A DNA stretch of 64,000 bases from Planctomycetaceae bacterium. GTDB taxonomy: Bacteria; Planctomycetota; Planctomycetia; Pirellulales; UBA1268. Numbering within the stretch: the stretch's first letter is position 1; the number at the start of each line of letters is the position of its first letter. The position numbers and the translations under genes were made by a program. Of the stretch, positions 10,337 to 62,725 are shown in pieces. The stretch is taken from positions 610-64,609 of the forward strand of contig CANFQO010000009.1 in assembly GCA_947449135.1 (NCBI GenBank), read 5' to 3'. Below the pieces are notes generated by a model that did no database searches, had not been told where the DNA came from, and saw nothing but the letters and a program-made list of their open reading frames with translations.

Positions 10337-10473
10337 TTTCACGAAAAACACGACATCGTGTCGTTTTTTCTTGGCGGGCCTCAGCCCGCAGGCGAGAGCC
10401 GGGCATCCTGCCCGGCAGTTGTGTGGTGCTGCCATCCGGGCGGCCCTCCTGCCCGACGTTCCTTGCGTGAAAA
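10337..10473 (+). repeat. Dispersed multi-hairpin element, copy A (with short terminal inverted repeat TTTCACG...CGTGAAA)
   Basis: Hairpins GAAAAA-c-ACGACA[tcg]TGTCGT-TTTTTC, GCGGGC[ctca]GCCCGC and GCCGGGC[atcct]GCCCGGC. Homologous to the copies at 10594(-), 24311 and 62567. Confidence 0.85.
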
Positions 10474-10514
10474 CTGCCACTGAGGAGACGGTCGGAGGCA
10501 CGCGTAAGATGGGT

Positions 10515-10594
10515 CAGGCCCGGAGGGCCGGGTAAGCACCAGCCGACGGAGGTCGGCCAAGCGAAAACGACACGATGTCGTGTTTTGCGTAAAA
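10515..10594 (-). repeat. Dispersed multi-hairpin element, copy B (inverted)
   Basis: Reverse complement reads ttttacgcaaaacacgacatcgtgtcgttttcgcttggccgacctccgtcggctggtgcttacccggccctccgggcctg. Confidence 0.85.
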
Positions 10595-10830
10595 ATAGAT
10601 GCTGAAGAGCCGGTCGGAGGCACGCGCAGGAGTCCGGTGAATTCTGCGACTCACGAGCGATTCACGATTCGTCCAAGAGCCTCCTGTAGCAGAATCCGCC
10701 GGCGACGAGCATGCCGCAGACCGGCGAACCAGTGCGGGCTGCTCCACATGCCCCGCGCAACGGCCTCGCCAGACAGGATGACACGCTCGTGTTATTCTGA
10801 CCGCGGACCAATCTGCCTCCACGAGGGCCA

Positions 10831-11232
10831 ATGTTGATGCCAACGCCCCAAGCCGCCAGCGATCTCTCCGTCAAAAAGTGCGTGCCCTGCGAAGGGGGCG
10901 TGCCGAAATACTCGTCGGCCGAGGCCGAGGCGCAGCTGGCAGCGATGCCCGCCTGGCGGCTCACGCACGACGGCACGCGGATCCGCCGCGACTGGACGCT
11001 GCGAAACTTTCGTGAGTGCATCAAGCTGATCAATACTGTGGGGGCGCTGGCGGAGCGGGAGCAGCACCACCCCGATCTCCACCTGGAGGGCTACCGCTGC
11101 GTATGGATCGAGATCTATACGCACGCCATCGGCGGCCTTTCCGAAAACGACTTCATCCTCGCGGCGAAGATCGACACGGCGGCTCCCGTGGTCCCAACGA
11201 ACAGCGAGTCAGCGAGTTCGCCTCAGGCGTGA
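10831..11232 (+). CDS. phhB: Pterin-4-alpha-carbinolamine dehydratase
   Basis: KKCVPCEGG, AEREQHHPDLHL, THAIGGLSENDFILAAKID. Confidence 0.92.
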   Translation: MLMPTPQAASDLSVKKCVPCEGGVPKYSSAEAEAQLAAMPAWRLTHDGTRIRRDWTLRNFRECIKLINTVGALAEREQHHPDLHLEGYRCVWIEIYTHAIGGLSENDFILAAKIDTAAPVVPTNSESASSPQA

Positions 11233-11247
11233 ATGCCGGAGTAGGTC

Positions 11248-12195
11248 TCAGCCGCCGCAGTAGTCGATCGCCCGCGCAATCTCGCTCTTGAGATCCTTGC
11301 GGGCCACGATGCGGTCGATGAAGCCGTGCTCCAGCAGGAACTCGCTCGTCTGGAAGCCCTTTGGCAGTTCCACGCGGATCGTGGCCTTGATCGTCCGCGG
11401 GCCGGCGAAGCCGATCAGGGCCCGCGGCTCGGCGAAGCAGAGGTCGCCGAGCGAGGCAAAGCTCGCGGCCACGCCGCCCATGGTCGGATTGGTGAGGACG
11501 GAGATGAACAGTCCTCCGGCCTGCGAATGTCGGGCGAGTGCCGCCGACACCTTCGCCATCTGCATCAACGAGAGGATGCCTTCGTGCATGCGGGCACCAC
11601 CGCCGGAGGCACTGATGATGATCAGTGGCAGCTTGCCAGCCGTGGCCCGCTCGACGAGCCGCGTGAGCCGCTCGCCGACCACGCTCCCCATGCTTCCCAT
11701 GATGAAGGAGGAGTCGGTCACGCCGCAGGCCACGCGTCGGGCGCGGATCATGCCGGTGCCGGTGACGACCGCGTCACGCATCCCTGTTCTCTTCTGCTCG
11801 GACACGATCCGTTCGGCATAGGCCTTCTTGTCACGGAAGCCGAGGGGATCGGTGGGCCGCAGGTTGGCGTCGCATTCCTCGAATGTGCCGTCGTCAAGGA
11901 GTTGGGCAATCCGCTGCGCCGCCGACACATACCAATGAAAGCCGCACTGCGGGCAGACGTTCTGCATCTCCTCCGCTTCCTTGCGGTAGATCGTCGCGCC
12001 GCAGCCCTCGCACTTCTGCCAGAGCCCCTCTGGCACGCCGCGTTTTGTTCGCGGGGCGGTCGCCGATTCGGCAGGCTTCGCTGGCGGCCGCGTGGCGACC
12101 TCGGCTGGCTCAGTTCCGGCGCTGGCGGAGTTGCCAGAGGCCGTGCCGACGGCTGTGGTTACGGTACTCGGTCGCGGTGAGCGGCGGCGTTCCAT
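11248..12195 (-). CDS. accD: Acetyl-CoA carboxylase carboxyltransferase subunit beta
   Basis: Zn ribbon CEGC...[46 protein letters not shown]. Confidence 0.95.
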
Positions 12196-12357
12196 GCGAT
12201 TGTGTCAACGCGCGTTGAAGCACGGTCTGAGAGAGGATGTCGGCGAAGCCGCTGCAACGGCGAGACGCATTGTAGCCCGGGGCTTGCCTCTCCCGCTGCG
12301 CCGAAATTGGCGGTGTGCGGCGTGGGACTCGGCTGTGTTTTTGCGGGCTGTGGCGCC

Positions 12358-12969
12358 TCAGATCGGGGTCGGCTGGTAACGATCGGCGCGGGGCATGCGG
12401 GCCCACTGGGACGCCACGGGGATTTCCCTGAGGGGCTCGCCGTGCGGATCGCGGGCCCAGAGATCACCCATCGACTCTCCCGCCACAAGCCAGCAGACGA
12501 GCCGGTCGAGAGGTTCGGGAACAACGATCGCCACGCGGCCCTCCGTGTATCGACGGAGGAGTTTTTCGAGCACCCGATCGACCCGTTCGCAGGCCTCCTC
12601 CAGCAGTTCGCCTTCGGGAGGCGCGACAGCCCACGGATTGTCCTGCCACTGCCGATAGAGCCGCGGCTGCTTCCGGCGAATGTCATCCACGAGCAGTCCC
12701 TGCCAGAGCCCCTGGTCGAGGTTATGCAGGTCTTCGATGACCCGCGGCTTGAGTCCCATGGATCGGCCGATGATCCGGGCCGTTTCCAAGGCACATTGCT
12801 CCTCTGAAGAGACGAGCGCGAGCACCGGACCGTCAGCCAGCAGGGTGGCCGCGTGTTCTGCTTCGGTGACGCCTGCCGGGCACAACGGTATGTCGACCAC
12901 GCCGCGAATCCGGCCCTGCATTTCGAAGTCGGTGGCACCGGCACGGATCACGATCAGAGAATCGGGCAT
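12358..12969 (-). CDS. Histidine phosphatase (phosphoglycerate mutase) fold protein with degenerate active site
   Basis: LIVIRAGATD...RIRGVVDIPLCPAG, CALETA, LHNLDQGLWQG, PPEGE. The RHG motif is replaced by RAG. Confidence 0.75.
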   Translation of the reverse strand: MPDSLIVIRAGATDFEMQGRIRGVVDIPLCPAGVTEAEHAATLLADGPVLALVSSEEQCALETARIIGRSMGLKPRVIEDLHNLDQGLWQGLLVDDIRRKQPRLYRQWQDNPWAVAPPEGELLEEACERVDRVLEKLLRRYTEGRVAIVVPEPLDRLVCWLVAGESMGDLWARDPHGEPLREIPVASQWARMPRADRYQPTPI

Positions 12970-13051
12970 TGAGTGGGCATTGGCTCCAGAGGAAAAGCAT
13001 TTCCCGCGGCGGCAATGCCGTCGGGAAAACAGGTTCGCTGCGGCTGTGCCA

Positions 13052-13771
13052 TCAGGCGGCACTCCGGGCGAGTTGTTCGAGTTCGGTGATGGCCTTGGCG
13101 TAGTCGTGCGATCGGATCACGGCGCTGCCGGCCACGATCAATTCCGCACCGGCAGCCGCCACGGGACCGATGGTTTCGGTCGAGATGCCACCATCCACCC
13201 CCAGCCGGAACGAGTCGCCGCGTTGGGACCGCAGCGCCGCGAGTTGGGAAAGTTTTGCGAGTGCCACAGGGTTGAATGCCTGACCGCCAAACCCTGGCTC
13301 CACGCTCATCACCAGGACGCCGTCGCAGACGTCGAGATAGGGCTCGATCCGATCGATGGGCGTGCCCGGACTGATGGCGAGATGGGCCCGGGGACCGAGC
13401 GACGCAATGGTCTTGAGGGTCTGCCTGGGATCGGAGAGTCCTTCCAGATGAACGGTCAGGATGTCGGCTCCGGCCTGGGCGTAGGCTTCGACACACGTCT
13501 CCGGCTGCTCGACCATGAGGTGGACCTCGAGCGGTCTCTTCGCGGCCCGTCGTACGGCCTCGACCACCACCAGACCGTAGGTCAGTTGCGGCACGAAGCG
13601 ACCATCCATGACGTCGAGATGAAGGGCGGCCGCACCGGCCGATTCCAATCGCTCGACCTCCCTGGCCAAGTGTCCAAAATCGCAGAGCAGGAGGGCCGGA
13701 AGAACCACGGGACCGCGGGCATCAAGCGTGGCCGCCAACTGATCGAAGGCCTGTCCTGCCGGAGGATTCAC
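13052..13771 (-). CDS. rpe: Ribulose-phosphate 3-epimerase
   Basis: LHLDVMDGRFVPQLTYG, EVHLMV, VMSVEPGFGGQAF, VDGGI, VAGSAV. Start approximate (GTG). Confidence 0.93.
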   Translation of the reverse strand: MNPPAGQAFDQLAATLDARGPVVLPALLLCDFGHLAREVERLESAGAAALHLDVMDGRFVPQLTYGLVVVEAVRRAAKRPLEVHLMVEQPETCVEAYAQAGADILTVHLEGLSDPRQTLKTIASLGPRAHLAISPGTPIDRIEPYLDVCDGVLVMSVEPGFGGQAFNPVALAKLSQLAALRSQRGDSFRLGVDGGISTETIGPVAAAGAELIVAGSAVIRSHDYAKAITELEQLARSAA

Positions 13772-13936
13772 GTGTGTGCGGAGCAGAAGTTTGTGGCGCT
13801 GGCTACCATGCCCGCTGCCGTGGCCGGCATTGTAACACGGCTGAGGAGGGGGGGCTGGTTTCACCGCCGGGAAGGTCTGGTCGACCCATCTGCAAACGCT
13901 TTCCGTACAAAGACTTGGAGAAAGGAACGCAACGCC

Positions 13937-16900
13937 ATGGCCGCCACATCAGGAGCCGCGATCGAGGGGGTGCTTCCCAGCCGGCTGTCGCCGGCCGACC
14001 GGGAGCAGATCGAACGACGGGTGCAGCAGATCGGCCGCGGACTGTTGGAGCAGTCGCTCGCCGCCGAGCCTACGGCCGTCTCTCCGGAGTGGTGGGCGCA
14101 GCAGGCGGGAGAGTGGGCCACGCATGACGACGATCTGAAAGTGCGGCTGTTTCGGCTCGTCGACTGCATGCCGATGCTGGAGCATCCCGCCTCGCTCGAC
14201 CGTCACCTCCGCGAATACATCGACGATGACGTCATCACGCGACTGCCGTCGTCGCTCCGGGTGGCGGTCCAGGCTGCCCGGAGCGGCCTCCTCGCGCCGC
14301 TGGCAGCCCGGGCGATCCGGGCTGCGGTGCTCGCTCAGGCCCGCCGGTTCATCGCCGGCTCGAATCCGGCGGAGGCGGCGCGGGCGGCGCTCGCCCAGCG
14401 CCGCCGCCACCGCGGCTTCACGCTCGACCTGCTCGGCGAGGCGGTCACGAGCGAATCGGAGGCCGATGCCTACGCCGACGCCTATACGCGACTGCTCACC
14501 GAGCTGCCCCGCCTTGCCGCAGCCTGGCCCGCCGACCCGCTGGTGGACGACGGGCCCGACGGGCCGATGCCGCGGGTGAACGTCTCACTCAAGCTCTCCG
14601 CGCTCGACAGCCAGTTCGACGCCATCGATCCACTGGGCACCTCGCATCGCGTGCTTGCGCGTCTGCGGCCGCTGTGGCGATTGGCCCGCGCCCATGCCGC
14701 GCAGGTGCACATCGACATGGAGAGCCACGCCACGAAGGACCTGACGCTGGCCATCTTCCGGCAGATTGCCATGGAGGAGGAATTTCGTGACTGGCCCGAT
14801 TGCGGGGTGGTCGTGCAGTGCTATCTCCGCGAGTCGCTTCGCGACCTCGAGTCGCTGGCTGCGTGGGCGCGAGACCGCGGCACGCCGGTCTGGATCCGGC
14901 TCGTCAAGGGTGCCTATTGGGACTTCGAGACGGTGCATGCAGAGGCCGCCGGCTGGCCCGTGCCCGTCTGGCAGCAGAAGTGGCAGACCGATGCCTGCTA
15001 TGAGGCGGCGACGACGTTCGTCATGGAGCACGCGACGACGCTGCGGCCGGCGCTCGGGAGCCACAACCTGCGATCGCTCGCGCATGGCATGGCGGTGGCC
15101 GAGCATCTGGGCATCGACCGGCGCGGCATCGAAATGCAGATGCTTCATGGCATGGGTGATCCCGAGAAGGAGGCGGTGACCGCCGCCGGATGGCGACTGC
15201 GGATCTACATGCCCTACGGTGAACTCGTGCCCGGGATGGCCTACCTCGTCAGGCGGCTCCTTGAAAACTCGTCGAACGACTCGTTTCTCCGTGCGGGCTT
15301 CGTGAAGCACGTGGCGCCCGCCACGCTGCTCGCGGCCCCGGGGCCGGCCGCGAACGCCGACGACGCGGGTGCTGACCCTCCGGCCTCGGCCGGGCCTCTC
15401 GCTGCGATCGGATTTCGCAACGAGCCGCTTGCCGATTTTTCGCTCGACGCTTCGCGGCGGTCCATGGAGGAGGCGGTCGCCCGACTGGCCGCCGGCTTGG
15501 CGGCACGACCGGTCGCGGTAGCAAGTGTGATCGACGGCCGCCGCGTGGAGTCTGGGGATGTGTTTCCGCGTCATGATCCGTCGGATCATGACCGACTGAT
15601 CGCACACGTGGCAGCAGCCACGCCCGCGGATGCCGACCGCGCGGTCACGGTGGCCCGCGAGGCGTTGCCTTTCTGGAATCAGGTCGGCTGGGAACGGCGG
15701 GCGGGCATTCTCGAGAAGGCTGCGGACATCATGCGACGCCGTCGGTTCGAGCTGGCCGCCATCGAGGTCTTTGAGGTGGGCAAGCCGTGGCGGGAGGCCG
15801 ATGCCGATGTGGCCGAGGCCATCGACTTCTGCTGCTACTACGCCCGAGAGGCCAGGCGGCTTGCTGCGCCAGCGCGGGTGGATGTGCCGGGAGAGGAGAA
15901 TACGACCGAATGGCTGCCCCGAGGTGTGGCGGTGGTGATTGCACCGTGGAACTTTCCGCTCGCGATTCTCACCGGTATGACGACGGCGGCGCTGGTCACC
16001 GGCAACACGGTGGTGATGAAACCTGCCGAACAGTCGTCGTTGATCTCGCTGCGGCTGCACGAACTGCTGCTTGAAGCGGGAGTTCCGCCTGCAGCACTGG
16101 CCTTCCTTCCAGGCCGCGGCGAGGAGGTGGGGCCACCGCTCGTGTCTCATCCCGACACGGCGCTCGTGGCGTTCACAGGCTCGCGGGCCGTTGGCTTGGC
16201 AATCCATGCCCAGGCGGCGGCAGCCTCGGCGGCTGCGGGCAGCGGGCAGGTGAAGCGGGTGATTGCAGAGATGGGAGGCAAGAATGCAATCATCGTTGAC
16301 GACGACGCCGATCTCGACGAGGCGGTGGTGGCGGTCGTGCAGAGTGCCTTCGGCTTCCAGGGGCAGAAGTGCTCCGCCTGCTCACGCGTGATCGTGCTCG
16401 ACCGCGTGCACGACGCCTTCGTCAGGCGTCTCTCCGAAGCGGTGAAGAGCCTGCGGGTGGGCCCGGCCGCCGAGCCGGGAACGCGAGTGGGGCCGCTCGT
16501 CGACGCGGAGGCGCGGGACCGCGTGCAGTCCTTCATCGAGGTCGGGCGAAAGACGGCCCGCGAGGTGGTGGCCGTCGATGCCGGGACGCTGGCGGGCCGG
16601 GGCTGGTTCGTCGGGCCGCATCTGTTTGCCGACGTCGATCCGGCGGGGCCTCTGGGGCAGGAGGAGATCTTCGGGCCGGTGCTGGCCGTGTTCCGTGCCC
16701 GCGACTTCACCCGGGCGATTGAACTTGCGAATGGTACGCCCTACGCGCTCACCGCCGGCGTCTTTTCCCGCAGCCCATCGCATCTGCATGAGGCGGCAGC
16801 GGCCTTGCAGGCAGGCAATGTCTATCTCAATCGGGGCATCACTGGAGCGTTGGTCCGACGGCAGCCATTCGGCGGTTACCGGATGTCGGGCAGCGGCAGT

Positions 16901-17002
16901 AAGGCGGGCGGGCCCGAATATCTCCAGCAGTTTCTCGTGGCTAGGACAGTTACGGAAAACACGCTGCGACGGGGTTTTGCGCCGCCTCGACGCCAAGCGT
17001 GA
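13937..17002 (+). CDS. putA: Bifunctional proline dehydrogenase / L-glutamate-gamma-semialdehyde dehydrogenase
   Basis: PRODH motifs (FTLDLLGE, NVSLKLS, HIDME, IRLVKGAYWD, YLVRRLLEN) plus ALDH motifs (APWNFP, FTGS, EMGGKN, GQKCSACS, EEIFGP). Start trimmed to the ATG at 13937, preceded by an AAGGA RBS. Confidence 0.95.
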   Translation: MAATSGAAIEGVLPSRLSPADREQIERRVQQIGRGLLEQSLAAEPTAVSPEWWAQQAGEWATHDDDLKVRLFRLVDCMPMLEHPASLDRHLREYIDDDVITRLPSSLRVAVQAARSGLLAPLAARAIRAAVLAQARRFIAGSNPAEAARAALAQRRRHRGFTLDLLGEAVTSESEADAYADAYTRLLTELPRLAAAWPADPLVDDGPDGPMPRVNVSLKLSALDSQFDAIDPLGTSHRVLARLRPLWRLARAHAAQVHIDMESHATKDLTLAIFRQIAMEEEFRDWPDCGVVVQCYLRESLRDLESLAAWARDRGTPVWIRLVKGAYWDFETVHAEAAGWPVPVWQQKWQTDACYEAATTFVMEHATTLRPALGSHNLRSLAHGMAVAEHLGIDRRGIEMQMLHGMGDPEKEAVTAAGWRLRIYMPYGELVPGMAYLVRRLLENSSNDSFLRAGFVKHVAPATLLAAPGPAANADDAGADPPASAGPLAAIGFRNEPLADFSLDASRRSMEEAVARLAAGLAARPVAVASVIDGRRVESGDVFPRHDPSDHDRLIAHVAAATPADADRAVTVAREALPFWNQVGWERRAGILEKAADIMRRRRFELAAIEVFEVGKPWREADADVAEAIDFCCYYAREARRLAAPARVDVPGEENTTEWLPRGVAVVIAPWNFPLAILTGMTTAALVTGNTVVMKPAEQSSLISLRLHELLLEAGVPPAALAFLPGRGEEVGPPLVSHPDTALVAFTGSRAVGLAIHAQAAAASAAAGSGQVKRVIAEMGGKNAIIVDDDADLDEAVVAVVQSAFGFQGQKCSACSRVIVLDRVHDAFVRRLSEAVKSLRVGPAAEPGTRVGPLVDAEARDRVQSFIEVGRKTAREVVAVDAGTLAGRGWFVGPHLFADVDPAGPLGQEEIFGPVLAVFRARDFTRAIELANGTPYALTAGVFSRSPSHLHEAAAALQAGNVYLNRGITGALVRRQPFGGYRMSGSGSKAGGPEYLQQFLVARTVTENTLRRGFAPPRRQA

Positions 17003-17183
17003 CACAGCGTTCGGGGCTCAGCGGGGCATGGCATAGCGATTCCGCTGCGAGTTCCAGCGGGGAGGCAGCCGGAAAAGACCGCGGTTTTTCGCGGGGGTTT
17101 GCGGTCGCTCATGAAACGCTCGCATTTCCCGCTACCATCTCTGAACGAGTCTCTTTTCCTGATCCCCTCCAAGGAATCTGTAG

Positions 17184-18212
17184 ATGTTGACACGCATGCT
17201 CACCCACGCGGCGGTTGCGTTCGCGGGAATCGTCGTGCTCCCGACGCTGGCCTGCCTTGATTCAGTCGTGGTCATCCGCACCGCATCGGCGCTCGATCAG
17301 GAAATCGACCCAGCCCTGAAGCCTTACGAAAAGGTGTCGGGTGAAGTGGCCGGTTCGCTCAAGTGTGTCGGATCCGACACGATGAACAACCTTGTCGCCC
17401 TCTGGGTGGAGGGCTTCAAGAAGTTTTATCCGAGCGTGCAGGAGGGGATTGAAGGCAAGGGCTCGGCATCGGCTCCGCCGGCCCTGACTGAGGGCACGTG
17501 TACGTTCGGCCCGATGAGCCGCGACTGGAAACCGTCGGAGATCGACGAATTCAAGCAGAAGCATGGGTACGCCCCGACCGTCGTACCGGTGGCGATCGAC
17601 ATGCTGGCGGTGTTCGTCCACAAGGACAACCCACTCAAGAGCCTCTCGCTGCAGGAGGTCGACGCGATCTTCTCGAAGAACCGCACCGGCGGTGCCAAGA
17701 ACGAAATCCGCACCTGGGGCGACCTCGGTCTGGAAGGCGAGTGGAAGGACAAGCCGATCAGCCTCTATGGCCGCAACGCCACGAGCGGCACCTACGGCTA
17801 CTTCAAAGAGAACGCCCTCTTCAAGGGTGACTTCAAGCCGACCGTCAAGGAGCAGCCCGGCAGTTCTGCGGTGGTGCAGGCCGTAGCCAGCGACAAGTAC
17901 GGCATCGGCTACAGCGGCATCGGCTACCGCACGGCCGATGTGCGGGCCGTGCCGCTGGCGGCGAAGCAAGGGGCGGCGGCAATTGAGACCGAGCCCAAGT
18001 TCGCCTATTCGGGTGAGTATCCGCTCTCGCGGTTTCTCTACCTGAGCGTCAATCACAAGCCGGGGACGGCGATCGATCCGTTGCGGGGCGAGTTCATCCG
18101 CTACGTGCTCAGCGCCACCGGTCAGGGAGACGTCCGAAAGGACGGCTATCTGCCGGTCACCGGTCCGATTGCAAAGCGGGCACTGCAGAGCGTCGGGCTC
18201 ACGAGTCCCTGA
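17184..18212 (+). CDS. pstS: Phosphate ABC transporter substrate-binding protein
   Basis: GSDTMNNL, EGKGSASA, MSR, GRNATSGTYGYF, YPLSRFLY; first gene of the pst operon. Confidence 0.92.
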   Translation: MLTRMLTHAAVAFAGIVVLPTLACLDSVVVIRTASALDQEIDPALKPYEKVSGEVAGSLKCVGSDTMNNLVALWVEGFKKFYPSVQEGIEGKGSASAPPALTEGTCTFGPMSRDWKPSEIDEFKQKHGYAPTVVPVAIDMLAVFVHKDNPLKSLSLQEVDAIFSKNRTGGAKNEIRTWGDLGLEGEWKDKPISLYGRNATSGTYGYFKENALFKGDFKPTVKEQPGSSAVVQAVASDKYGIGYSGIGYRTADVRAVPLAAKQGAAAIETEPKFAYSGEYPLSRFLYLSVNHKPGTAIDPLRGEFIRYVLSATGQGDVRKDGYLPVTGPIAKRALQSVGLTSP

Positions 18213-18238
18213 GTTCCGCGCCTGCGCCTCCGCGAGCC

Positions 18239-20971
18239 ATGAGCCCGGGTATGCCACCGCAGTCCACCTTCACGGGCCGCTCGCGCCGCCGCAAGACCCA
18301 TCCGTGGGTGAGGGCTGGCGACATGCTGGCCCGCGCCGTCATCACTCTGGGAGGCATCGGCACGATCATCGCCGTGTTGGCTGTCGCCGTGTTCCTTATG
18401 GGCGTGGCGCTGCCGTTATTCTGGCCGGCGCGGCTCACGCTGGAACATGGGGCTAGTGTCGTCGCCCCGGTGGCGGGAGGGTCTGCGACGGATTCGGCGG
18501 CCGTGCCAGTCCGGGGGGAGTCTGGCACCTTCACCGCCCTCGGTGCCGATGAGGCGGGTGTCGTGGCGTGGATGTTTGATGGCAACGCGGTTTCCGAATC
18601 AGAAGTCGCGGCCGCCCCGGGGCTCCTGCGGGTCTTCTCGATCGCCGACGGCAAGGCTCTGCTGACTCGATCGGCTGCTGAGTGTGGGCTGTCCGATGCA
18701 ACCACCATTCAGATGCTTCCCGGTGGCATCCAGGCCGTGGTTGGTTTCCAGGATGGTTCCTTCCGCATCGGCCGCCTGGGTTTGGAGTCGACGTTCCTCT
18801 CGCCCGATGCGGTGCCGCCCGCCATCGCCGGCCTCGCTGAAGGAGCGGCGGAGGTTCACGACGGTGGTCTGATCGTGCGGACGTCCAGCGGGCAGTACGG
18901 AACCGTTCGCATGGTGACCGAATTTGAATCACCCCCGTCGACCGTCCTCGATCGCCCGGTGATTGATGCCGACATCACGATGCTGTCCGGCGGCCCGCTC
19001 GTTGCCGCACTGGATGCTGCCGGCACGGTGCGAGTGGAGACGATCACGTCGCGACGTAACCTGCTCACCGATGAACTGATCACCTCTGCGTCAGGCGCCA
19101 CGATCGACGTCGCTGCCAATGACTCAGGGATCGGGGACAATCGATTCAGTCCGAGATTCGTGCGGGTGTCGGAGTTGGGGGACCAGTTGTTTCTGATCGC
19201 GGCGGACGGCGGTGCACGGCGGTATGAGATTCGCGACATCGAGTCGCCGGTATTGATGGAGTCGTTCGATACGGTGCCGAACGAAGATACCGTGACCTGT
19301 GTGGTCGATATCTTCGGCGGCAATGCGATCGCCGTCGGCGACAGCGCTGGGGTGGTGCGGGTGTTTTTTGCAACCCGGGCGGCTGACGTGACCGCCGCGG
19401 ACGGATTGCAGATGGCCGAAGTGAACGTGTTTCCTGCGGTTTCTGGCGGTGGTTCGTCCACCGGCATCACCGCGATGTCGTCTTCGCCGCGTTCGCGTCT
19501 CTTGGCGGTCGCTGATGCCGCTGGGGGGATCCGCCTCCTGCAGACAACCACCGGGGCGACGGCGGTGTCGCTCCGGGGCGTCGATCCGGCGGCACTCGAG
19601 GCTCCCGCTGGGCAACTGCTGATCACGCCTCGCGAAAACAGGCTGCTCGCAACCGGCGGGAACCGGATGGCGGCATGGTCGTTGAACGCGGGCTATCCGG
19701 AAGTCTCCTGGCGGGCCCTGTTCGGTCGGGTGTGGTACGAGAAATATCCTGGGCCGGTCCATGCCTGGGAGACGACGGGCCACGAATCATTTGAGCCAAA
19801 GTTCGGCCTCGTACCGCTGATTTTTGGCACGCTCAAGGCCACCCTCTATTCAATGTTGTTCGCCACGCCGATTGCGATTCTCGCGGCGATCTTCGCCAGC
19901 CAGTTCATGCATCCCACCTGGAAGGCCCGCATCAAGCCGACGATCGAGATGATGGCCAGCCTGCCGAGCGTAGTGCTCGGTTTCGTGGCTGGGTTGATCT
20001 TTGCGCCGATCATCGAGCGGTCATTGATGACGATGTTGGCGGGTTTTTTCTGCGTGCCGCTGACGTTGCTCAGTGGGGCGTTCTGCTGGCAACTCCTGCC
20101 GCCAGGCTGGCGGAGCCGGTATGCGGCCTGGCGGTTTCCGCTCATCGTCGCCGTCGCATTGCCGGCAGGAGTTGCGGTGGCGGGAGCGGCGGCGGCTCCC
20201 ATGGAGCGGTTGCTATTCAACGGCGATGCGGCCGCGTGGCTGGACGGACGCGGCGGAAGTGGATTCGGCGGCTGGGTGCTCGCCCTGCTGCCACTCGCCG
20301 GCGTGTTGTCGGCGATGTTGCTGGGCTGGTTCGTCAACCCGTGGCTGCGGCGCAACAGCCGGGGATGGTCGCAGCATCGGGCAGCGGTCGTATCGCTGTG
20401 CACCTTCGCCGTCGGTGTCACTCTGGCCGTCGCCCTGGCCGTCGCTGCGGCGTCGTTTTTTGACGCGCTGCGACTCGACACCCGCGGTGGGCTGTTTGGC
20501 ACGTACGTGCAACGCAATGCCCTCATCGTTGCCATTGGCATGAGCTTCGCCATCATTCCACTGATCTTTACCATCGCCGACGACGCGCTCTCCAGCGTGC
20601 CCGACCATCTTCGCAGTGCCTCGCTCGGAGCCGGAGCCACTCCGTGGCAGACGGCAGTCCGCGTGATCGTCCCGGCCGCGGCCAGCGGTCTCTTCTCCGC
20701 TGTGATGATCGGATTGGGGCGGGCCGTTGGCGAGACGATGATCGTGTTGATGGCGGCGGGCAACACGCCGCTGATGGGCTGGAACCTGTTCAACGGATTC
20801 CAGACGCTCTCGGCCGCCATTGCCACCGAACTGCCCGAGGCCGCTCGGGGCAGTGCTCACTACCGAGTGCTTTTCCTGGCGGCCCTCACGCTCTTCGCCA
20901 TGACATTCGTCGTGAACACGGCTGCGGAGATCGTGCGGCAGCGGTTCCGCAGGAGGTCCCATGAACTCTGA
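18239..20971 (+). CDS. pstC: Phosphate ABC transporter permease (long form, with large extracytoplasmic beta-rich domain)
   Basis: C-terminal GTLKAT, SLPSVVLG, ASLGAGATPWQT, GRAVGETMIV; about 450-aa soluble insert after TM1. Confidence 0.88.
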   Translation: MSPGMPPQSTFTGRSRRRKTHPWVRAGDMLARAVITLGGIGTIIAVLAVAVFLMGVALPLFWPARLTLEHGASVVAPVAGGSATDSAAVPVRGESGTFTALGADEAGVVAWMFDGNAVSESEVAAAPGLLRVFSIADGKALLTRSAAECGLSDATTIQMLPGGIQAVVGFQDGSFRIGRLGLESTFLSPDAVPPAIAGLAEGAAEVHDGGLIVRTSSGQYGTVRMVTEFESPPSTVLDRPVIDADITMLSGGPLVAALDAAGTVRVETITSRRNLLTDELITSASGATIDVAANDSGIGDNRFSPRFVRVSELGDQLFLIAADGGARRYEIRDIESPVLMESFDTVPNEDTVTCVVDIFGGNAIAVGDSAGVVRVFFATRAADVTAADGLQMAEVNVFPAVSGGGSSTGITAMSSSPRSRLLAVADAAGGIRLLQTTTGATAVSLRGVDPAALEAPAGQLLITPRENRLLATGGNRMAAWSLNAGYPEVSWRALFGRVWYEKYPGPVHAWETTGHESFEPKFGLVPLIFGTLKATLYSMLFATPIAILAAIFASQFMHPTWKARIKPTIEMMASLPSVVLGFVAGLIFAPIIERSLMTMLAGFFCVPLTLLSGAFCWQLLPPGWRSRYAAWRFPLIVAVALPAGVAVAGAAAAPMERLLFNGDAAAWLDGRGGSGFGGWVLALLPLAGVLSAMLLGWFVNPWLRRNSRGWSQHRAAVVSLCTFAVGVTLAVALAVAAASFFDALRLDTRGGLFGTYVQRNALIVAIGMSFAIIPLIFTIADDALSSVPDHLRSASLGAGATPWQTAVRVIVPAAASGLFSAVMIGLGRAVGETMIVLMAAGNTPLMGWNLFNGFQTLSAAIATELPEAARGSAHYRVLFLAALTLFAMTFVVNTAAEIVRQRFRRRSHEL

Positions 20972-22664
20972 CAGGCAGCGACCCAGGCGGATGCGTTCGT
21001 CCTATTCGAGCCTGACGGCCCACGGCGAACCGTGGGTATGGCTCACCGGCGGGGCCTTGGCGCTAGCGATCATGATGATCACCGGCCTGCTCGCGTTTAT
21101 CGCGATCCGCGGAGCGAGCACGTTCTGGCCCGTGCCGCTCGAACTGGTTGAGTTGGCCGATGGCCGGCGGGCACTCGGCGAGGTGTCTGAAAAAGAGGAG
21201 GCCGAGGCGGCCACGGCTGCGGTGACAGGTCGCAGTGCCCGTCGGCTCGTCCGCACGGCCAACTTTGAAGTCTCAGGCAAGCATTACGAATGGTTCGATG
21301 ACGCGGCGATCGCGGAAGTGAGTCGGCCGGAATGGGCCACCGCCTTGGAGCGACTCGAGGGGGGCAGGTTTCACGGCTTCCCGGTGCGGTTGCTGCATGG
21401 CGATGAGGTCATCGCCGTCGGTCCCGAGGAGACCTGGAAGGCCTTCGAACGCGAGCATCCCGCCGTGCGGCGGCGGTGGCGGGAGGTCATGCGGATCGAC
21501 AGGCACGACCGCGGCCGTCTGCAGCGCGACCTTCGTGCCGCGCGACTGGCAGTCGTGCAGGCAGGGCTCGACGCGGGAACTGCAGCCGCGAACTCGGCGT
21601 CGGTGTCGGCCGCGCAGGCCGCGGCGGCCGCGACGGAACAGGAAGTCATCGCCCGCGTGAACGGGCGGTCTGCAGAACTCGACGCGCAGACGGCGGCATT
21701 GCGGCGGCAGAACGAGGGCTGGGGGCTCGAGGTCGAAACTGCCGACGGCATCAAGAAGATCCTGCCGCTCGAGGGCATCGTACGGGCTTGGCAACCGAAC
21801 CGGCTCTCGACGGCCGGCAAACTTGGCGTGTACGCCGGTCGATGGCAGGAGTTTCTCACCGACGATCCGCGGGAGGCCAACAGCGCCGGCGGCGTCTTCC
21901 CCGCGATTTGGGGCACCGTGTCCATGACGCTGATCATGGCGCTCCTGGTGGCCCCCTTCGGCGTGCTGGCCGCGCTCTATCTTCGCGAGTATGCCTCACG
22001 CGGGCCTGTCACAACGGCGGTGCGGATCGCCATCAACAATCTCGCTGGCGTGCCGAGCATCGTCTACGGAGCATTTGGGCTCGGATTCTTCTGTTATGCG
22101 CTCGGTGGCAGCATCGATGAGCTCTTTTTCCGTGCCAGCCTGGTGGCGGACAAGCAGCCGACATTCGGCACCGGCGGCCTGCTCTGGGCGTCGCTCACCC
22201 TCGCGCTTTTGACGTTGCCGGTGGTGATCGTGGCCACCGAAGAGGCCCTCTCCGCCGTTCCCAACTCCATGCGTGAGGGGTCGTATGCGTGTGGCGCCGG
22301 CAAGTGGCAGACCATTCGGCGGATCGTGCTGCCCAGGGCGCTGCCGGGCATCATGACGGGCCTCATTCTGGCGATGGCGCGGGGGGCGGGCGAAGTGGCG
22401 CCATTGATGCTCGTGGGTGTGAAAAAGCTCGCGCTCGACCTGCCGATCGACGGCACGTTTCCTTTCGTCCATCCCGAGCGGGAGTTCATGCACCTCGCCT
22501 ACCTGATCTACGACGTCGGCTTCCAGAGTCCCAATAGCCAGGCGGCCAAGCCGATGGTGTTTACGATCACGTTCCTGCTGGTGGCGATCATCGCGCTGCT
22601 CAACGTGGCTGCGATCTGGCTCCGCTCCCGGCTAAAGCGTCGGTATGTCTCGCAACAGTTTTAG
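20961..22664 (+). CDS. pstA: Phosphate ABC transporter permease (long form)
   Basis: PREANSAGGVFPAIWGT, NLAGVPSIVYG, REGSYACGAGKWQT, ARGAGEVAPL. Confidence 0.92.
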   Translation: MNSDRQRPRRMRSSYSSLTAHGEPWVWLTGGALALAIMMITGLLAFIAIRGASTFWPVPLELVELADGRRALGEVSEKEEAEAATAAVTGRSARRLVRTANFEVSGKHYEWFDDAAIAEVSRPEWATALERLEGGRFHGFPVRLLHGDEVIAVGPEETWKAFEREHPAVRRRWREVMRIDRHDRGRLQRDLRAARLAVVQAGLDAGTAAANSASVSAAQAAAAATEQEVIARVNGRSAELDAQTAALRRQNEGWGLEVETADGIKKILPLEGIVRAWQPNRLSTAGKLGVYAGRWQEFLTDDPREANSAGGVFPAIWGTVSMTLIMALLVAPFGVLAALYLREYASRGPVTTAVRIAINNLAGVPSIVYGAFGLGFFCYALGGSIDELFFRASLVADKQPTFGTGGLLWASLTLALLTLPVVIVATEEALSAVPNSMREGSYACGAGKWQTIRRIVLPRALPGIMTGLILAMARGAGEVAPLMLVGVKKLALDLPIDGTFPFVHPEREFMHLAYLIYDVGFQSPNSQAAKPMVFTITFLLVAIIALLNVAAIWLRSRLKRRYVSQQF

Positions 22665-22757
22665 TCACATGCAGAACGCTCACCTGCCGGGGGTGATTTC
22701 GGTGTGGTACGATCATTCAGCAGTCGTCACGGACGATCGCCTTTCATTGGTAGCATC

Positions 22758-23642
22758 ATGAACATTCAGGCAGAGCCAACAGCACCGCGAGGCGGACAGC
22801 CCGAAACAGTGACGGCCACCGATCGTTTGCAGGCGGTGGCCGCGGGCCGCGATGTGCCCTCCGAAGTGCACCCCGAAGTGCTCGAAGCGACTCCGGTCCT
22901 GGAGATCGACCGCTTCAACCTTTGGTATGGCGGCAAGCAGGCGCTCCACGGCATCACCATGCCGATCCCGAACAACAAGGTCACGGCGCTCATCGGCCCC
23001 AGCGGTTGCGGCAAGTCGACCCTGCTGCGGAGTGTCAACCGTCTCAACGATCTCGTGCAGAGCGTGCGGATCACCGGTGACATGCGGCTCAACGGCGACT
23101 CGATCTACGACCCCAGGATGGATGTCATCGAATTGCGGAAGCGGATGGGTATGGTGTTTCAGAAGCCGAATCCGTTTCCGATGAGCATCTATGAAAACGT
23201 CGTCTACGCCCTGCGGATCGATGGCGAGAACAACCGCGCCGCGCTCGACGAAGTCTGCGAACTGAGCCTGCGGGGTGCGGCCCTCTGGGACGAGGTGAAA
23301 GACCGGCTGCACGACAGTGCGATCGGGCTCTCGGGCGGCCAGCAGCAGCGGCTCTGCATCGCGCGGGCTATCGCGGCCGAACCGGAAGTGCTGCTGCTCG
23401 ACGAACCTTGCTCCGCCCTCGATCCGATTGCGACCGGTAAGGTCGAGGACCTGATTCAGGAACTGCGTGGCCGGTATTCCGTACTGATTGTCACTCACAA
23501 CATGCAGCAGGCCAGCCGCACGAGCGACTATACCGCGTTCATGTATCTCGGCCGGCTCATCGAATACGGCACGACTTCCGGCATCTTTACCAAGCCAATC
23601 CTCCGTGAGACCGAGGCCTACGTCACCGGCCGCTTCGGCTGA
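22758..23642 (+). CDS. pstB: Phosphate ABC transporter ATP-binding protein
   Basis: [52 protein letters not shown]. Confidence 0.96.
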
Positions 23643-23650
23643 CAATCCCA

Positions 23651-24310
23651 ATGACGCACCACATCGAACGCCAGATCGAGCATTTGAAAGAGCGGATCCT
23701 CCGTGTCGGCACCCTCGTGGAGGAGGCGATCTCGAAATCGATCACGGCACTCATCAACCGCGACACGCAGCTCGCGCAGCGTGTCATGAGTAGCGACGAG
23801 GATATTGACCGCATGGAAGTGGAGGTCGAAGAGGAGTGCCTGAAAATCCTCGCCCTCTACCAGCCGGTTGCCGCCGACCTCCGCTTCGTGGTATCGGTGC
23901 TGAAGATCAACAACGATCTCGAACGAATGGGCGACCTGGCCCGAAACATCGCGAAGCGGGTGGCCCAACTCACCGCAGGAGAGCCCTGCGTGCTGCCTCC
24001 CGAGATTCGCACGATGGCGATGCAGGCGCAGGACATGGTGAAGGAGTGCCTCGACGCGGTGGTCAAAGGGGATCCATCCCTGGCCCGGCAGGTTCGCGAG
24101 GAGGATGACGCGGTCGATGAAGCACGGCAGAAGATTCGGCGGAGGGTGATCCAGGAAATCAAGGAAAACCCTGAAAACGTGGAGAGTCTGCTGCGGATCA
24201 ATTCCGTTTCCAAGCACATCGAGCGGATCGCCGATATGGCGACGAACATCGCCGAGGACGTGATTTATATGGTGCAGGGCGACATCGTCCGGCACCGTTC
24301 CAACGACTGA
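23651..24310 (+). CDS. phoU: Phosphate signalling complex protein PhoU
   Basis: YQPVAADLR, DLERMGD, ERIADMATNIAE; last gene of the pst operon. Confidence 0.95.
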   Translation: MTHHIERQIEHLKERILRVGTLVEEAISKSITALINRDTQLAQRVMSSDEDIDRMEVEVEEECLKILALYQPVAADLRFVVSVLKINNDLERMGDLARNIAKRVAQLTAGEPCVLPPEIRTMAMQAQDMVKECLDAVVKGDPSLARQVREEDDAVDEARQKIRRRVIQEIKENPENVESLLRINSVSKHIERIADMATNIAEDVIYMVQGDIVRHRSND

Positions 24311-24389
24311 ATACACGAAAAACATCGCATCGTGCGATTTTTTCTTGGCGGGCCTCCGCCCGCCGGTGCTGACCCGGCCATCCTGGCCT
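24311..24389 (+). repeat. Dispersed multi-hairpin element, copy C
   Basis: GAAAAA-c-ATCGCA[tcg]TGCGAT-TTTTTC, GGCGGGC[ctcc]GCCCGCC and GGCC[atcct]GGCC; starts right after the phoU TGA. Confidence 0.85.
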
Positions 24390-24480
24390 AACGCGAATTT
24401 GGCTCCGCTTTCCGGCTGCTCCTGCCCCGTGGTAGCCTTTTCGGGTCATTTCGCCCGTCCCGCTGCCGGAACCCGCGCCC

Positions 24481-51550: not shown

Positions 51551-51572
51551 GCCGTGGCTCCGGTGGTCGACA

Positions 51573-52397: not shown

Positions 52398-52546
52398 TGG
52401 AAACAGCCTTTTACGGGTGAGAGAGGGTCCCCGCGGCACCCCCCGGAAATTGTGCGCAAAAAACTTGCTGTGGCAGGAACGGAGTGTATGTTTTGTTAAT
52501 TATTAGAGCTAGCGTTCTGGTTTTTTGTTGCAGAAAGGCTTTTTCA
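52398..52546. promoter_or_regulatory. AT-rich divergent promoter region
   Basis: Conspicuously AT-rich tract (tatgttttgttaattattag) between the divergent PhlG-like and multicopper oxidase genes; TTGCTG-N16-TATGTT candidate on the + strand. Confidence 0.4.
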
Positions 52547-55345: not shown

Positions 55346-55422
55346 GCTCATTTTTTCGAGGTAGAGTTCGGGAGAGGGTTGTACCGTGGGTTGCCCGGCC
55401 GGAAAGGGCCAATGAGCTTGCC

Positions 55423-56391: not shown

Positions 56392-56455
56392 ATGGGGACG
56401 GGACTGATTTTTCGGCCGCCACAGGAAGGTCCAAAAATCAGTCCCGTCCCCATTT
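56390..56455. repeat. Perfect 23-bp inverted repeat with 20-nt spacer between convergent genes (REP-doublet-like / bidirectional terminator)
   Basis: AAATGGGGACGGGACTGATTTTT (56390-56412) and AAAAATCAGTCCCGTCCCCATTT (56433-56455). Confidence 0.85.
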
Positions 56456-58003: not shown

Positions 58004-58019
58004 GCTCGCCCTCGCGTCA

Positions 58020-59231: not shown

Positions 59232-59276
59232 GGCTGGGCTCCGGCTGGAGGATGCTCTGGGGGCGGCGAGCCTGCG

Positions 59277-60449: not shown

Positions 60450-60564
60450 GAGCAGGCTCCCAAGTGGCGGGCCAAGGATCTCACTGCCGAGGGGCCGAAA
60501 CGCATCGGTGATTCCCGCCCAGCAGCTTTCTGAAAACCGTTTAGAAAGTCAGGAAAGCAGACGG

Positions 60565-61104
60565 TCAGTAGCGTAATCCATTCTTCCGCACGTGTACCAG
60601 TGGGGTCGCTTCAGGGCCGGTGCCGGCACCGACCACGCGGGCCAGAATGATCACATGGTCGCCCGTCACGCCGCCGCCTCCGCCAGCCTGTGTCACGGCC
60701 TGGCATTCAAGCCAGGCGCTCGCATCGGCGATGACGGCGGTGCCCGAACCAGAGCGTTCGATGCGGAGGCCGTCAAAGGGATTCTCACCCGGGCCAGCAG
60801 GGCGTCCAAACCGGGACACCAGCGACCGCTGCGATTCCCCCAGCACGTTGACGACGAACGGCGTGCACTGATCGATCGCGGCCAGCAGGTCTCGCGATGT
60901 GCTCACCGCAATCGTGATCAGCGGCGGCACGAATCCGCCCTGCATGATCCAACTCGCGAGCATGCCCCGGTCCGTCGCGTCGGCATCGTTCTCCGCTGCC
61001 CGCCATGTCACCACGAACAGTCCGCTGGGGATGCGTCCCAATGCAGCGGCAGTGGCCTCGGTATCAACTGGTTCATTCTGGGCGTTTGGCTGCGGTTGCG
61101 TCAT
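60565..61104 (-). CDS. Flavin reductase family protein
   Basis: ALGRIPSGLFVVT, ASW.MQ.GF.PP, GDH. Confidence 0.85.
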   Translation of the reverse strand: MTQPQPNAQNEPVDTEATAAALGRIPSGLFVVTWRAAENDADATDRGMLASWIMQGGFVPPLITIAVSTSRDLLAAIDQCTPFVVNVLGESQRSLVSRFGRPAGPGENPFDGLRIERSGSGTAVIADASAWLECQAVTQAGGGGGVTGDHVIILARVVGAGTGPEATPLVHVRKNGLRY

Positions 61105-61297
61105 TGTCGTTGTGGTGTGAAAAGGCGTGGGCTGGGCGTTTCAGAAATTCTCAGGATTGCCCTGTTTTCCTCGGTGAACTGCGTGACATGAATCGCAGGG
61201 GCATAAGTCGTTTCAGCACGCTTCCTACGCTGGCGGAATCCACGCTGTGATGCCGATCAATCTGTGGCTGTCCGCTGCGTGGAACTAGAGTGTCGCA

Positions 61298-62566
61298 GTG
61301 GTGGTCACGAACCGCAACCCGTGGCCGGTTATCTGGTTTCATCTGTCGCTGTGCCCGCTCACACTCTCCCGGTGTTCATTGCTGCTCCGCATCCGCCCAC
61401 CGACCGGTCCGTCGCGGTGCTGTCCTGCGCCAAGCGGCCCGTCGCGCCGTCGTCTGACGGGGCTGTGCGCAGCGGTGCTCGTCATGGCGGTCTTGCCAGG
61501 CCTACTGACGCCGGCTCCCAAGGCAGCCGCCGACCTGGTGTGGACGTCCGGACAGGACGACGCTGGCGGGAGCTACACGATCCCCGCGCCGCAGCAGGAG
61601 CCGGCTCCTGCCGGCGAGCCGGGCGGCGGACCGCAGCTGCTCCCACTGCCGTCAACGCAGCCCCGTGGGCCGGTCATCCTCGACGTGCCCTACGAGGAAG
61701 CCCCTTCCGCTCCGGATGAATACCCGTTGCCGGGTGCCGGATTTCCCGAGGGGTTTGACGACCTCTGGGCAGCGAGGCCGTGGTCCTGGCAGATCATGCC
61801 CAACAACCTGATCTACACGAGCTACCTCGCCGGGCCGAAGGAACCGCGGATCGGCACGGTGGTCTACAACGACACCGCAAGCGATCCACTGAACCCCACG
61901 ATCTCGAACGGCACCATGTGGGATACAACGCTCGGCGGCCGGGCCTCGATTCTTCGCTTTGGCTCCGACCCGGTGCTGCATCCGCAGGGCTTCGAGGTTC
62001 AGATCGAGGGCGCGGCGTTCGTGCGGCTCGACCCGCAGGAAGACCGCGATCTGCGGAGTGCCGACTACCGCTTCGGCGTGCCGCTGGTCTACGGCATCGG
62101 CCGCTGGCAGACGAAGCTGGCCTACTACCACAACAGCGCCCACCTCGGCGATGAGGCGATGCTCAAGCACCCAAAATACGAGCGGCTCAATTACGTCCGC
62201 GACTGCATCGTCTGGGGCAATTCCTACTATCTCTTCGACTGGATGCGGCTCTACGGAGAGGTTGGCTATGCCTTCTTCAACGCGGGCGGCTCGCAGCCTT
62301 GGGAATTCCAATACGGCACAGAATTAATCCAGGCCCGAGCGACCGGCATCCATGGTGCACCCTTTTTCGCCATCAATGGGATCTCGCGGCAGGAACTCGA
62401 CTGGGGCGGGAATGTCTGCGTGCAGACGGGCTGGGCCTGGCGCGGCCGCCGGAGCGAAAAGCTCTTTCGCATCGGCTTCGAATATCTCTACGGCTCCGAT
62501 CCGCAGTTTCAGTTTGCGTTCGCCAACCAGAATCGCTACGGCGCCGGCATGTGGTATGACTTCTGA
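61298..62566 (+). CDS. DUF1207-like outer-membrane/secreted protein
   Basis: YLAGPKEPR, SADYRFGVPL, YYH.SAHLGDE, C-terminal WYDF. Start uncertain. Confidence 0.7.
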   Translation: MVVTNRNPWPVIWFHLSLCPLTLSRCSLLLRIRPPTGPSRCCPAPSGPSRRRLTGLCAAVLVMAVLPGLLTPAPKAAADLVWTSGQDDAGGSYTIPAPQQEPAPAGEPGGGPQLLPLPSTQPRGPVILDVPYEEAPSAPDEYPLPGAGFPEGFDDLWAARPWSWQIMPNNLIYTSYLAGPKEPRIGTVVYNDTASDPLNPTISNGTMWDTTLGGRASILRFGSDPVLHPQGFEVQIEGAAFVRLDPQEDRDLRSADYRFGVPLVYGIGRWQTKLAYYHNSAHLGDEAMLKHPKYERLNYVRDCIVWGNSYYLFDWMRLYGEVGYAFFNAGGSQPWEFQYGTELIQARATGIHGAPFFAINGISRQELDWGGNVCVQTGWAWRGRRSEKLFRIGFEYLYGSDPQFQFAFANQNRYGAGMWYDF

Positions 62567-62725
62567 CTTCACGCGAAACACGGCCATCCAGGCCGTTTTC
62601 GCTTGGCCGACTTCCGTCGGCTGGCATGAGCCGGGCATCGTGCCCGGCAGTCAAGCGGTGCAATGGCGCATCGTGCCGACCTTGCCTTGGTGGCCCTTCG
62701 GCCAGGGCTTCCGGCCCTGGCGTGG
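62567..62725 (+). repeat. Dispersed multi-hairpin element, copy D
   Basis: GCGAAA-c-ACGGCC[atcca]GGCCGT-TTTCGC, GCCGAC[ttcc]GTCGGC, GCCGGGC[atcgt]GCCCGGC, and a later GCCAGGGC[ttccg]GCCCTGGC. Right end approximate. Confidence 0.85.

Follow-up and report, generated by a model that had tools for sequence, protein, structure and literature searches.

What kind of element are the four intergenic sequences, each with three consecutive hairpins, that lie dispersed over a 64,000-nucleotide stretch of DNA from a Planctomycetaceae bacterium of the order Pirellulales? This stretch, called the window here, is C9:610-64609 of the source genome G000, a 3.69-Mb draft in 169 contigs with 64.6% G+C. A preliminary description, made from the letters of the window, had reported the four sequences as copies A to D of a dispersed family with compensatory base changes in its stems. 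From the analysis presented here, the four copies are probably members of a family of small palindromic repeats that is restricted to one lineage, interspersed in about 100 copies per genome and of the same kind as the repetitive extragenic palindromic (REP), BIME and BOX repeats.

The sequence was re-read at all four places. Every copy carries the claimed scaffold ACG-H1-CTTGG-H2-H3, in which H1 to H3 denote the three hairpins, and the reported stem and loop sequences were correct throughout, down to the single outer-stem mismatch of copy B, which is an A·C (GCAAAA/TTTCGC). RNAfold recovered the three hairpins in each of the four copies, with z-scores from -2.8 to -6.1 (200 shuffles each). 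The core of copy A lies at 10333-10419 on the plus strand and scores 93.8 bits with R1, the covariance model described below; its H1 is at 10343-10370, CTTGG at 10370-10374, H2 at 10374-10389 and H3 at 10398-10416. Copy B, in an inverted, tail-to-tail arrangement with copy A, has its core at 10512-10598 on the minus strand (94.9 bits; H1 10561-10588, H2 10542-10557, H3 10517-10529). Copies C and D are on the plus strand, with cores at 24307-24393 (94.7 bits; H1 24317-24344, H2 24348-24363, H3 24376-24388) and 62563-62653 (85.3 bits; H1 62573-62602, H2 62606-62621, H3 62630-62648), respectively. The cores of all four copies stood as described, while the longer ends given to A (10473) and D (~62725) turned out to be hairpins outside the shared model. 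The stop codon of the upstream gene forms the start of copies A, C and D, in each of which the TGA lies in the conserved 5′ CTGA of the element. This tetranucleotide, on the plus strand, is at 10333-10336 in copy A, where it includes the stop of a BBP7-porin-like open reading frame (ORF) at 8855-10336, at 24307-24310 in copy C (stop of phoU, 23651-24310) and at 62563-62566 in copy D (stop of a DUF1207 ORF, 61298-62566).

Four copies in one window had led to the prediction of many copies genome-wide, and this prediction held. With the four copies as the seed of a hidden Markov model (HMM), the nhmmer search of G000 gave 82 matches at E<1e-3, and 90 after iteration (two rounds). Sixty distinct full-length copies were then aligned by MAFFT, with the structure not used (alignment A1), and R1 was built from A1 with 24 base pairs. 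At the match threshold of E<=0.01, R1 gave 98 matches in G000 among 150 scored candidates. Many copies are located at contig ends, as is usual for a repeat, and the count in G000 is therefore a lower bound. A degenerate H1 pattern was expected 0.00 times in shuffles of the window, although this pattern is narrow and matched copy D only.

The covariance-model search of this genome and of other Planctomycetota, which the preliminary description had proposed, found further copies in abundance. Matches to R1 were present in all 19 other genomes of the same genus, at 11 to at least 103 each, and in five other genera of the family their numbers were 44, 15, 1, 0 and 0. Among 16 genomes from other families of the order, nine had none and seven had a single marginal match (E 6e-4 to 8e-3). 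The exact degenerate H1 pattern occurred in at least 118 stretches of public genome records. Among the matches listed, nearly all of these records were lake metagenome-assembled genomes (MAGs) titled Pirellulales, Planctomycetia or Planctomycetaceae, together with some titled Kuenenia and one Chitinophagaceae; the viral contigs searched with the same pattern gave no match.

The family had not been recognized as a named one, and Rfam agreed with this, giving no match at the gathering score in the whole window; in E-value mode, the best scores were far too low, with 18.7, 16.7 and 15 bits where the respective families require 80, 56 and 46.6. Among the titles and abstract openings listed from the literature on repeats of Planctomycetes or Planctomycetota (repetitive extragenic palindromic, miniature inverted-repeat), none gave a pointer to the family. 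The supplements of PMC3733652 list Planctomycetes carrying GTAG repeats, a list that matters for the novelty of the present family. With this provision, the conclusion that the family is new within the REP/BIME/BOX-like repeats, and that it belongs to an uncultured freshwater lineage of Pirellulales, is well supported.

The unit is ~85-95 nt long, with an H1 of ~28-31 nt, an H2 of ~16 nt and an H3 of ~13-21 nt. From the 5′ side, the order is C-T-G/A-N-N-T-W-C-A-C-G, H1, CTTGG, H2, a linker and H3, and in the fixed single-stranded scaffold CTGGTGCT comes after CTTGG. In H1, the outer stem is rich in A/T, a C is bulged and the inner stem is variable, with 11-13 bp of stem in total. The bulged C noticed in the four copies was borne out in A1, where it occupies alignment column 20 and is kept in at least 90% of the copies. 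The other constant unpaired parts are TWCACG, CTTGG, CTGGTGCT and the loops ATCCT/ATCGT/CTCC. The 5′ edge is sharp: conservation begins at -5, with C in 71 of 85 copies followed by T in 54 and G in 58, and the triplet at -4 to -2 is TGA in 14/85 and TAG in 7/85. A closing helix is possible in the H3 class that ends in GCAG. There the termini CTG...CAG can pair over 3-5 nt, as between the 5′ CTGAC of copy D and GTCAG at 62649-62653; this pairing is seen in some copies, and the other H3 class is without it. Counted by eye from the list of 60 copies, the stems occur in at least 13 perfectly complementary variants of outer H1, at least 15 of inner H1, at least 11 of H2 and at least 12 of H3, many of them present in several copies. 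A T6 run follows H1 in 19 of the 60, and G/C pairs replace the A/T outer stem in many variants.

The compensatory changes claimed from the four copies were clearly detected in the whole family. In A1, 88.1% of 1416 cells were paired, compared with 68.1% in shuffles, and none of 500 shuffles reached the observed value. Changes on both sides of a pair were found in 289 cells against 101 in the shuffles, again with 0/500 reaching the observation. When the partners were slid by 1-3 columns as a control, only 32-49% of the cells in A1 were paired. In a second alignment, A2, composed of 91 distinct copies from other genomes, 95.4% of the cells were paired as compared with 75.4% in shuffles; these copies were fitted to R1, and their loci were picked by the H1 pattern, so that H1 is biased. 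Many of the mismatch cells are register artefacts in H3. The stems are nearly all Watson-Crick, with G·T and A·C cells numbering 21 vs 35 in A1 and 7 vs 29 in A2.

What this covariation means is a separate matter. The preliminary description held that selection acts on structure rather than sequence; the covariation stood, and selection is one of several explanations for it. The same pattern would be equally expected from the amplification of masters that were already compensated, or from the correction of one arm against the other. It had further been proposed that the element is a structured RNA or a single-stranded DNA (ssDNA) substrate. The pairing is indeed kept, but RNA and ssDNA were not separated, as there was no G·U excess. 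The asymmetry between G·U and A·C, tried as a means of choosing the RNA strand, was rejected on the same ground.

No selection would be needed at all if the arms of a quasi-palindrome were corrected by intrastrand template switching and the modules were exchanged by gene conversion. Template-switch correction of quasi-palindromes is a mechanism described in E. coli. Switches from one Watson-Crick pair to another with almost no G·U or other intermediates, as observed here, agree with such a process, and so do two observations at orthologous sites described below: variants at one site recur at other loci, which suggests replacement by copying, and the copy behind phoU in genome G008 is recombinant-like (GCGAAA/TTTTTC). 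However, template switching explains perfect stems and not the existence or the position of the family, and the conserved unpaired motifs imply a sequence-specific constraint. Taking also into account that the mechanism comes from work in E. coli, we regard this explanation as rather unlikely.

The position of the copies relative to genes was analyzed in G000 with a codon-bias gene caller made for this study, a crude tool (2508 genes, 85% of the genome) on which all of the following placement counts rest. Of 90 copies, 83 were intergenic; the upstream gene was co-oriented for 60 of these, opposed for 15 and uncertain for 8. Among the spacers that bear copies, 23 were convergent (10.6 expected by count), 27 tandem (32.6 expected) and 4 divergent (10.9 expected; p=5e-5), and an expectation by spacer length gave a similar convergent excess and divergent deficit. 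Between tandem genes, the element was in sense orientation 22 times and antisense 9 times (p=0.03). In 13 of the 90 copies, the element's own CTGA/CTAG is the stop codon of the co-oriented upstream gene. These 13 copies are at a distance of exactly +1 from the stop, and no other distance was shared by more than two copies. The sharp 5′ edge and this coincidence with stop codons together indicate that the element carries, or lands on, CTGA/CTAG. Three inverted pairs of whole units were noticed among the 90 copies (A/B, C7:76273/76491 and C15:14158/14277), and tandem arrays and mosaics with other repeats were also present.

Such a placement can be read differently, namely as that of a host-selected cis-acting RNA, which would be a terminator in the 3′ untranslated region (UTR), a protector of the mRNA 3′ end or a platform for an RNA-binding protein, and for which spread would be secondary. 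The preference for gene 3′ ends with avoidance of divergent (promoter) spacers, the sense bias in tandem pairs and the 13 copies that begin exactly at the stop codon all speak for this reading, as does the conservation of loops and linkers on one strand while the stems covary. H1 of A, B and C was called terminator-like on both strands, with only 3 G-C pairs in those stems. Logan contigs from one lake metatranscriptome (13% of words) carry element sequence over the bins of A/B and of C (8500-25500), and one of them departs from the reference inside H2 of copy B and continues into another H1 variant. This occurrence in RNA-library contigs is weak support: the contigs come from related strains, their ends, strand and level are not readable, and DNA carry-over is possible, so that nothing was concluded from them. 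Conversely, near-pure Watson-Crick stems with no excess of G·U over A·C are unusual for selection at the RNA level, and 15 copies are antisense to the upstream gene. The T6 run in only 19 of 60 copies, together with the G/C variants of the outer stem, indicates that a U-tract terminator is not a conserved feature. In addition, sister species differ at one and the same gene end, which may be empty, carry a copy or carry a different one, and this speaks against an essential role at any one gene. We consider a host-selected RNA possible, but doubtful.

The turnover of the element was followed at two orthologous sites. Behind phoU, 17 orthologues were readable: five have a full copy on the stop codon, two have a full copy slightly downstream, three have remnants and seven have none. 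The full copies on the stop represent several H1 variants; among these five, additional tandem H2-H3 units (1.5-3.5) are present in three, and two copies in one. In the copy of G008 at this site, the 5′ arm is GCGAAA and the 3′ arm is TTTTTC. At the second site, which separates DUF1207 from tsaD, nine of 18 readable orthologues have a full copy, two a partial one and seven none. All 11 copy-bearing orthologues end the gene in CTGA or CTAG, whereas of the seven that lack a copy, six have TTTTAG as the gene end and one has TTCTGA. The stop and the tsaD ATG are 2 nt apart in four of these seven. In a tree of the flanking genes, G000 (filled) groups with G012 (empty) with support of 86/86, and G017 (filled) with G018 (unrelated spacer) with 99/97. 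Within one well-supported clade (100/99), the site is found with three different H1 variants, empty, and with a spacer of unrelated sequence. Since the stem variants found at one site recur at other loci of G000, replacement of copies is likelier than drift in place. As side observations, a single H1 is followed by tandem amplification (2-4 times) of H2-H3 units, or of whole units, downstream of phoU in L197 (G004), L199 (G016) and L209 (G012), and L272 of G001 shows an at least twofold repetition of a ~150-nt unit that includes the element. Between DUF1207 and tsaD, L264 (G006) and L258 (G018), which are in different clades, have homologous spacers of ~146 nt that bear no relation to the three-hairpin element; four other species are without any spacer there, and the ~146-nt sequence may be another mobile repeat at the same hot spot.

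Polymorphism of the copies among species would also be found for a miniature inverted-repeat transposable element (MITE), which derives by deletion from a DDE-type insertion sequence, is moved in trans via its terminal inverted repeats and leaves a target-site duplication. The CTG...CAG termini, which pair over 3-5 nt in the GCAG class of H3 (CTGAC/GTCAG in copy D), point in the same direction. However, inverted termini of just 3-5 nt are short, and they are missing in the other H3 class. At the two sites where filled and empty states could be compared (phoU and tsaD), no target-site duplication was visible, no longer element with these ends was present among the HMM and R1 matches, and the H1 pattern was without a match in viral contigs. 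A MITE is thus a very improbable explanation.

The bulged H1 with CT on its 5′ side is reminiscent of the ssDNA substrate of a RAYT/TnpA(REP) enzyme of the Y1 HUH type, as in a REPtron, and the preliminary description had suggested a search for copies that flank such a gene. Group-2 REPs, as described in PMC8266576, likewise have a conserved motif followed by a long palindrome in which a bulge is required, and they are cleaved at a CT located 5′ or 3′ of the REP. One Y1 gene was found in G000, at C148:3439-4119 on the minus strand (L001:1195-1878). Its product of 227 aa has the HUH and Tyr motifs and scores 60.1 bits with NCBIfam REP_Tyr_transpos, whose cut-off of 80 it does not reach. Upstream of the gene the contig breaks off after 46 nt, as contigs do at repeats, so that this flank is unseen, and the downstream spacer is 31 nt. 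No element copy stands beside this gene, which is on a different contig from the window. Y1 homologues were scattered over 14 of 31 family genomes, with 46-86% identity and in some cases with in-frame stops, and PF01797 matches were present in 13 of the 19 genus relatives. The expected linkage failed: none of the 36 Y1 loci in the genus and family had an R1 match at E<0.01 within ~1.5 kb, the best E-value being 0.048. The six genus genomes without a PF01797 match (G019, G001, G002, G014, G013 and G008) nevertheless have 44-96 element matches; the completeness of these MAGs is 72-94%, which weakens the argument from absence. G020 has three Y1 homologues but only one element match. The GTAG tag is absent as well. 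A Y1-like mechanism for the element is therefore unsupported despite the likeness of H1 to the group-2 REPs, and we judge a REPtron-type system to be quite improbable. The hexamers TTCACG and CTTGGC near Y1 genes were uninformative. Local GC skew, taken as a proxy for the direction of replication, was also without signal in this draft, as gene strand gave 280/268 and 335/354 and element orientation 16 vs 25. No TnpB was found in G000. Among other candidates, attC sites, whose cores are RYYYAAC/GTTRRRY, came into question through the bulged base and the location behind stop codons; they were rejected by eye, as such cores are missing and the neighbours are core genes (phoU, tsaD).

Among known systems, BOX repeats follow the module scheme A-B(n)-C, and the element is like them in its variable number of internal modules, the H2-H3 units. 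Pneumococcal BOX, along with RUP and SPRITE, is modular with extensive secondary structure, is restricted to one species group and is co-transcribed, and BOX repeats have been judged parasitic, expressed and likely to affect the genes that are transcribed together with them (PMC3049150); our element resembles them in this general character. It differs from BOX in that no sequence relation exists, the host is a high-GC planctomycete, and the stems are hypervariable while the loops and linkers are conserved.

The resemblance to the REP/BIME repeats of Enterobacteria and Pseudomonas is more detailed. REPs are described as palindromes of 20-50 nt with a high copy number and a mostly intergenic location, at gene ends (PMC8266576, PMC3733652), and the element, with the ~28-31 nt of its H1 and its 90-98 mostly intergenic copies, agrees with this. 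It shares with REPs a short conserved motif 5′ of a stem that may be bulged, mosaic and tandem arrangements, termini that supply stop codons and compensatory changes in the stems (PMC8266576, PMC3733652, PMC3116915); such changes are reported as common in the hairpins of REPINs and REP doublets in PMC3116915, and stop codons from REP termini in PMC3733652. Unlike REP/BIME, the element has a unit of ~85-95 nt without the GTAG tag, and a cognate tnpA(REP)/RAYT gene flanked by copies was found at none of the 36 Y1 loci. Like the CGTC REPs of alpha-proteobacteria and others, it has A/T pairs at the stem base, a loop of 4-5 nt, a short unpaired tail and no association with a transposase gene, as far as those repeats are described in PMC3733652. 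Its tag is T-W-C-A-C-G instead of CGTC/TGTC/CCTC, its tail is CTTGG instead of CCA, and its H1 stem of 11-13 bp with a bulge compares with one of 8-9 bp in CGTC elements (PMC3733652). The latter are mostly head-to-head dimers (PMC3733652), in contrast to the three inverted pairs noticed here. Intrinsic (bidirectional) terminators share the A-run, stem and T-run of H1, which the terminator prediction picked out on both strands of copies A, B and C; the element differs from ordinary terminators in that only part of the family has the T-run, and in its conserved multi-hairpin scaffold and its ~100 near-identical copies. The ends of IS200/IS605 (PATE) are characterized by subterminal hairpins, by insertion 3′ of a fixed tetranucleotide with no duplication, by a strand bias in relation to replication and by a TnpA Y1 gene in the genome. 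For the element, a conserved CTG(A/T) lies 5′ of H1 and no duplication was visible, no TnpB was found, and the Y1 genes are unlinked to the copies.

We therefore favor the reading as a REP/BIME/BOX-like interspersed repeat, and several points weigh against it. The three hairpins have distinct sequences and stand in direct order, not as the alternating REP/iREP pairs of a BIME, and GTAG and CGTC/TGTC/CCTC are absent from the flanks of H1 on both strands. The analysis found neither a mobilizing enzyme nor a target-site duplication nor an excision junction, and mobility therefore rests on presence and absence among species, which may reflect either gain or loss. At the tsaD site, the empty junction is identical in four non-sister species, and a shared right-flank sequence is also present in filled sites of different clades. 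Sense bias and abutment to stop codons would also fit a host-selected 3′-UTR RNA. Finally, the RNA data consist of the Logan contigs of one lake metatranscriptome, in which ends, strand and level are not readable, and the gene context depends on the gene caller of this study.

As a REP/BIME/BOX-like repeat, the element would be a non-autonomous selfish DNA, and a factor acting in trans would copy or exchange it in the form of a folded single strand. Propagation would be limited to copies whose hairpins are intact, and compensated stem variants could in this way found new subfamilies. In place, the element would be co-transcribed into the 3′ UTR, where its hairpins are probably transcript-end or stability elements; the form of H1 with A-run and T-run resembles a bidirectional intrinsic terminator.

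The surroundings of the copies contain further repeats. A second element of ~150 nt with a long covarying stem, called element 2 here, lies at 10597-10746 on the plus strand and forms a composite with inverted B-type copies; the 5′ end of copy B (CTA, minus strand) adjoins its 5′ end. The 5′ end of element 2 recurs as a partial copy on the 3′ side of copy B (10479-10503, plus strand), so that copy B is bracketed by the 5′ motif of element 2 in direct repeat. A junction like that at 10479-10503 separates the units of tandem arrays elsewhere, for example at C8:4387 and C8:4509. G000 contains ~45-50 copies of element 2, such as C8:4243-4390, C46:18426-18578, C7:24468-24609 and C4:118927-119068, and in 13 of 45 copies an inverted three-hairpin element adjoins the 5′ end. 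Copies listed from other genus genomes are mostly 91-97% identical, compared with 79-87% for flanking genes, and one genus genome was without a match at the threshold used. The ends of element 2 are conserved and its center is variable; in its long predicted stem, four pairs show changes on both sides and a U·G is conserved. Element 2 gave no Rfam match, no TnpB parent was found in G000, and no copy was longer than the non-autonomous unit. Element 2 may be a structured RNA or a MITE. It is conceivable, albeit an unlikely guess, that both elements are parts of one RAYT-independent system that installs or swaps cassettes of hairpins where genes end and thereby rewrites the stop codon and 3′ UTR, with the stems regenerated by templated fold-back copying and not by slow compensatory mutation.

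At least three more families of short repeats were seen beside the copies of G000, for example at C91:10811-10850, C59:6590-6630 and C23:18740-18780. One type of neighboring repeat is a G+C-rich hairpin with a GGAA loop and an A-run before it, another contains ...CCGTGAGGGGCTGCCCATG..., and another has a GAGCCGG...GGAAGC... motif. The intergenic DNA of G000 is a mosaic of repeats.

In the window, the tail of copy A (10420-10473, plus strand) forms one or more further short hairpins with an ATCC-type loop outside the R1 match, and that of copy D (62654-62725, plus strand) contains more hairpins, including a second CTTGG followed by hairpins, outside the family model. In the region 62663-62752, the longest ORF of tsaD, from 62663, passes through the tail of copy D. 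The tsaD orthologues at empty sites start at a conserved CCATGCC, which places the start at 62750 and indicates that the repeat inflates the predicted N-terminus. Around copy A, the ORFs 7418-9541 (minus strand) and 8855-10336 (plus strand) overlap by ~690 nt. The Mur-ligase domains of the former are confined to residues 396-697, so that its real start is probably downstream; copy A marks the end of the BBP7-porin-like ORF on the plus strand, not of the overlapping ORF on the minus strand.

For the genomes of this lineage, the family has practical consequences. It breaks assemblies, as the many copies at contig ends indicate, and it shifts predicted stop and start codons, so that masking it is advisable when these MAGs are annotated. 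Proteobacteria are the best-known hosts of REP-like repeats, and the way in which kinds without a transposase spread is an open question. With its rich and clean stem covariation, its fixed relation to stop codons and its visible turnover between sister species, the family constitutes a natural data set on how such elements move and why their hairpins are preserved.

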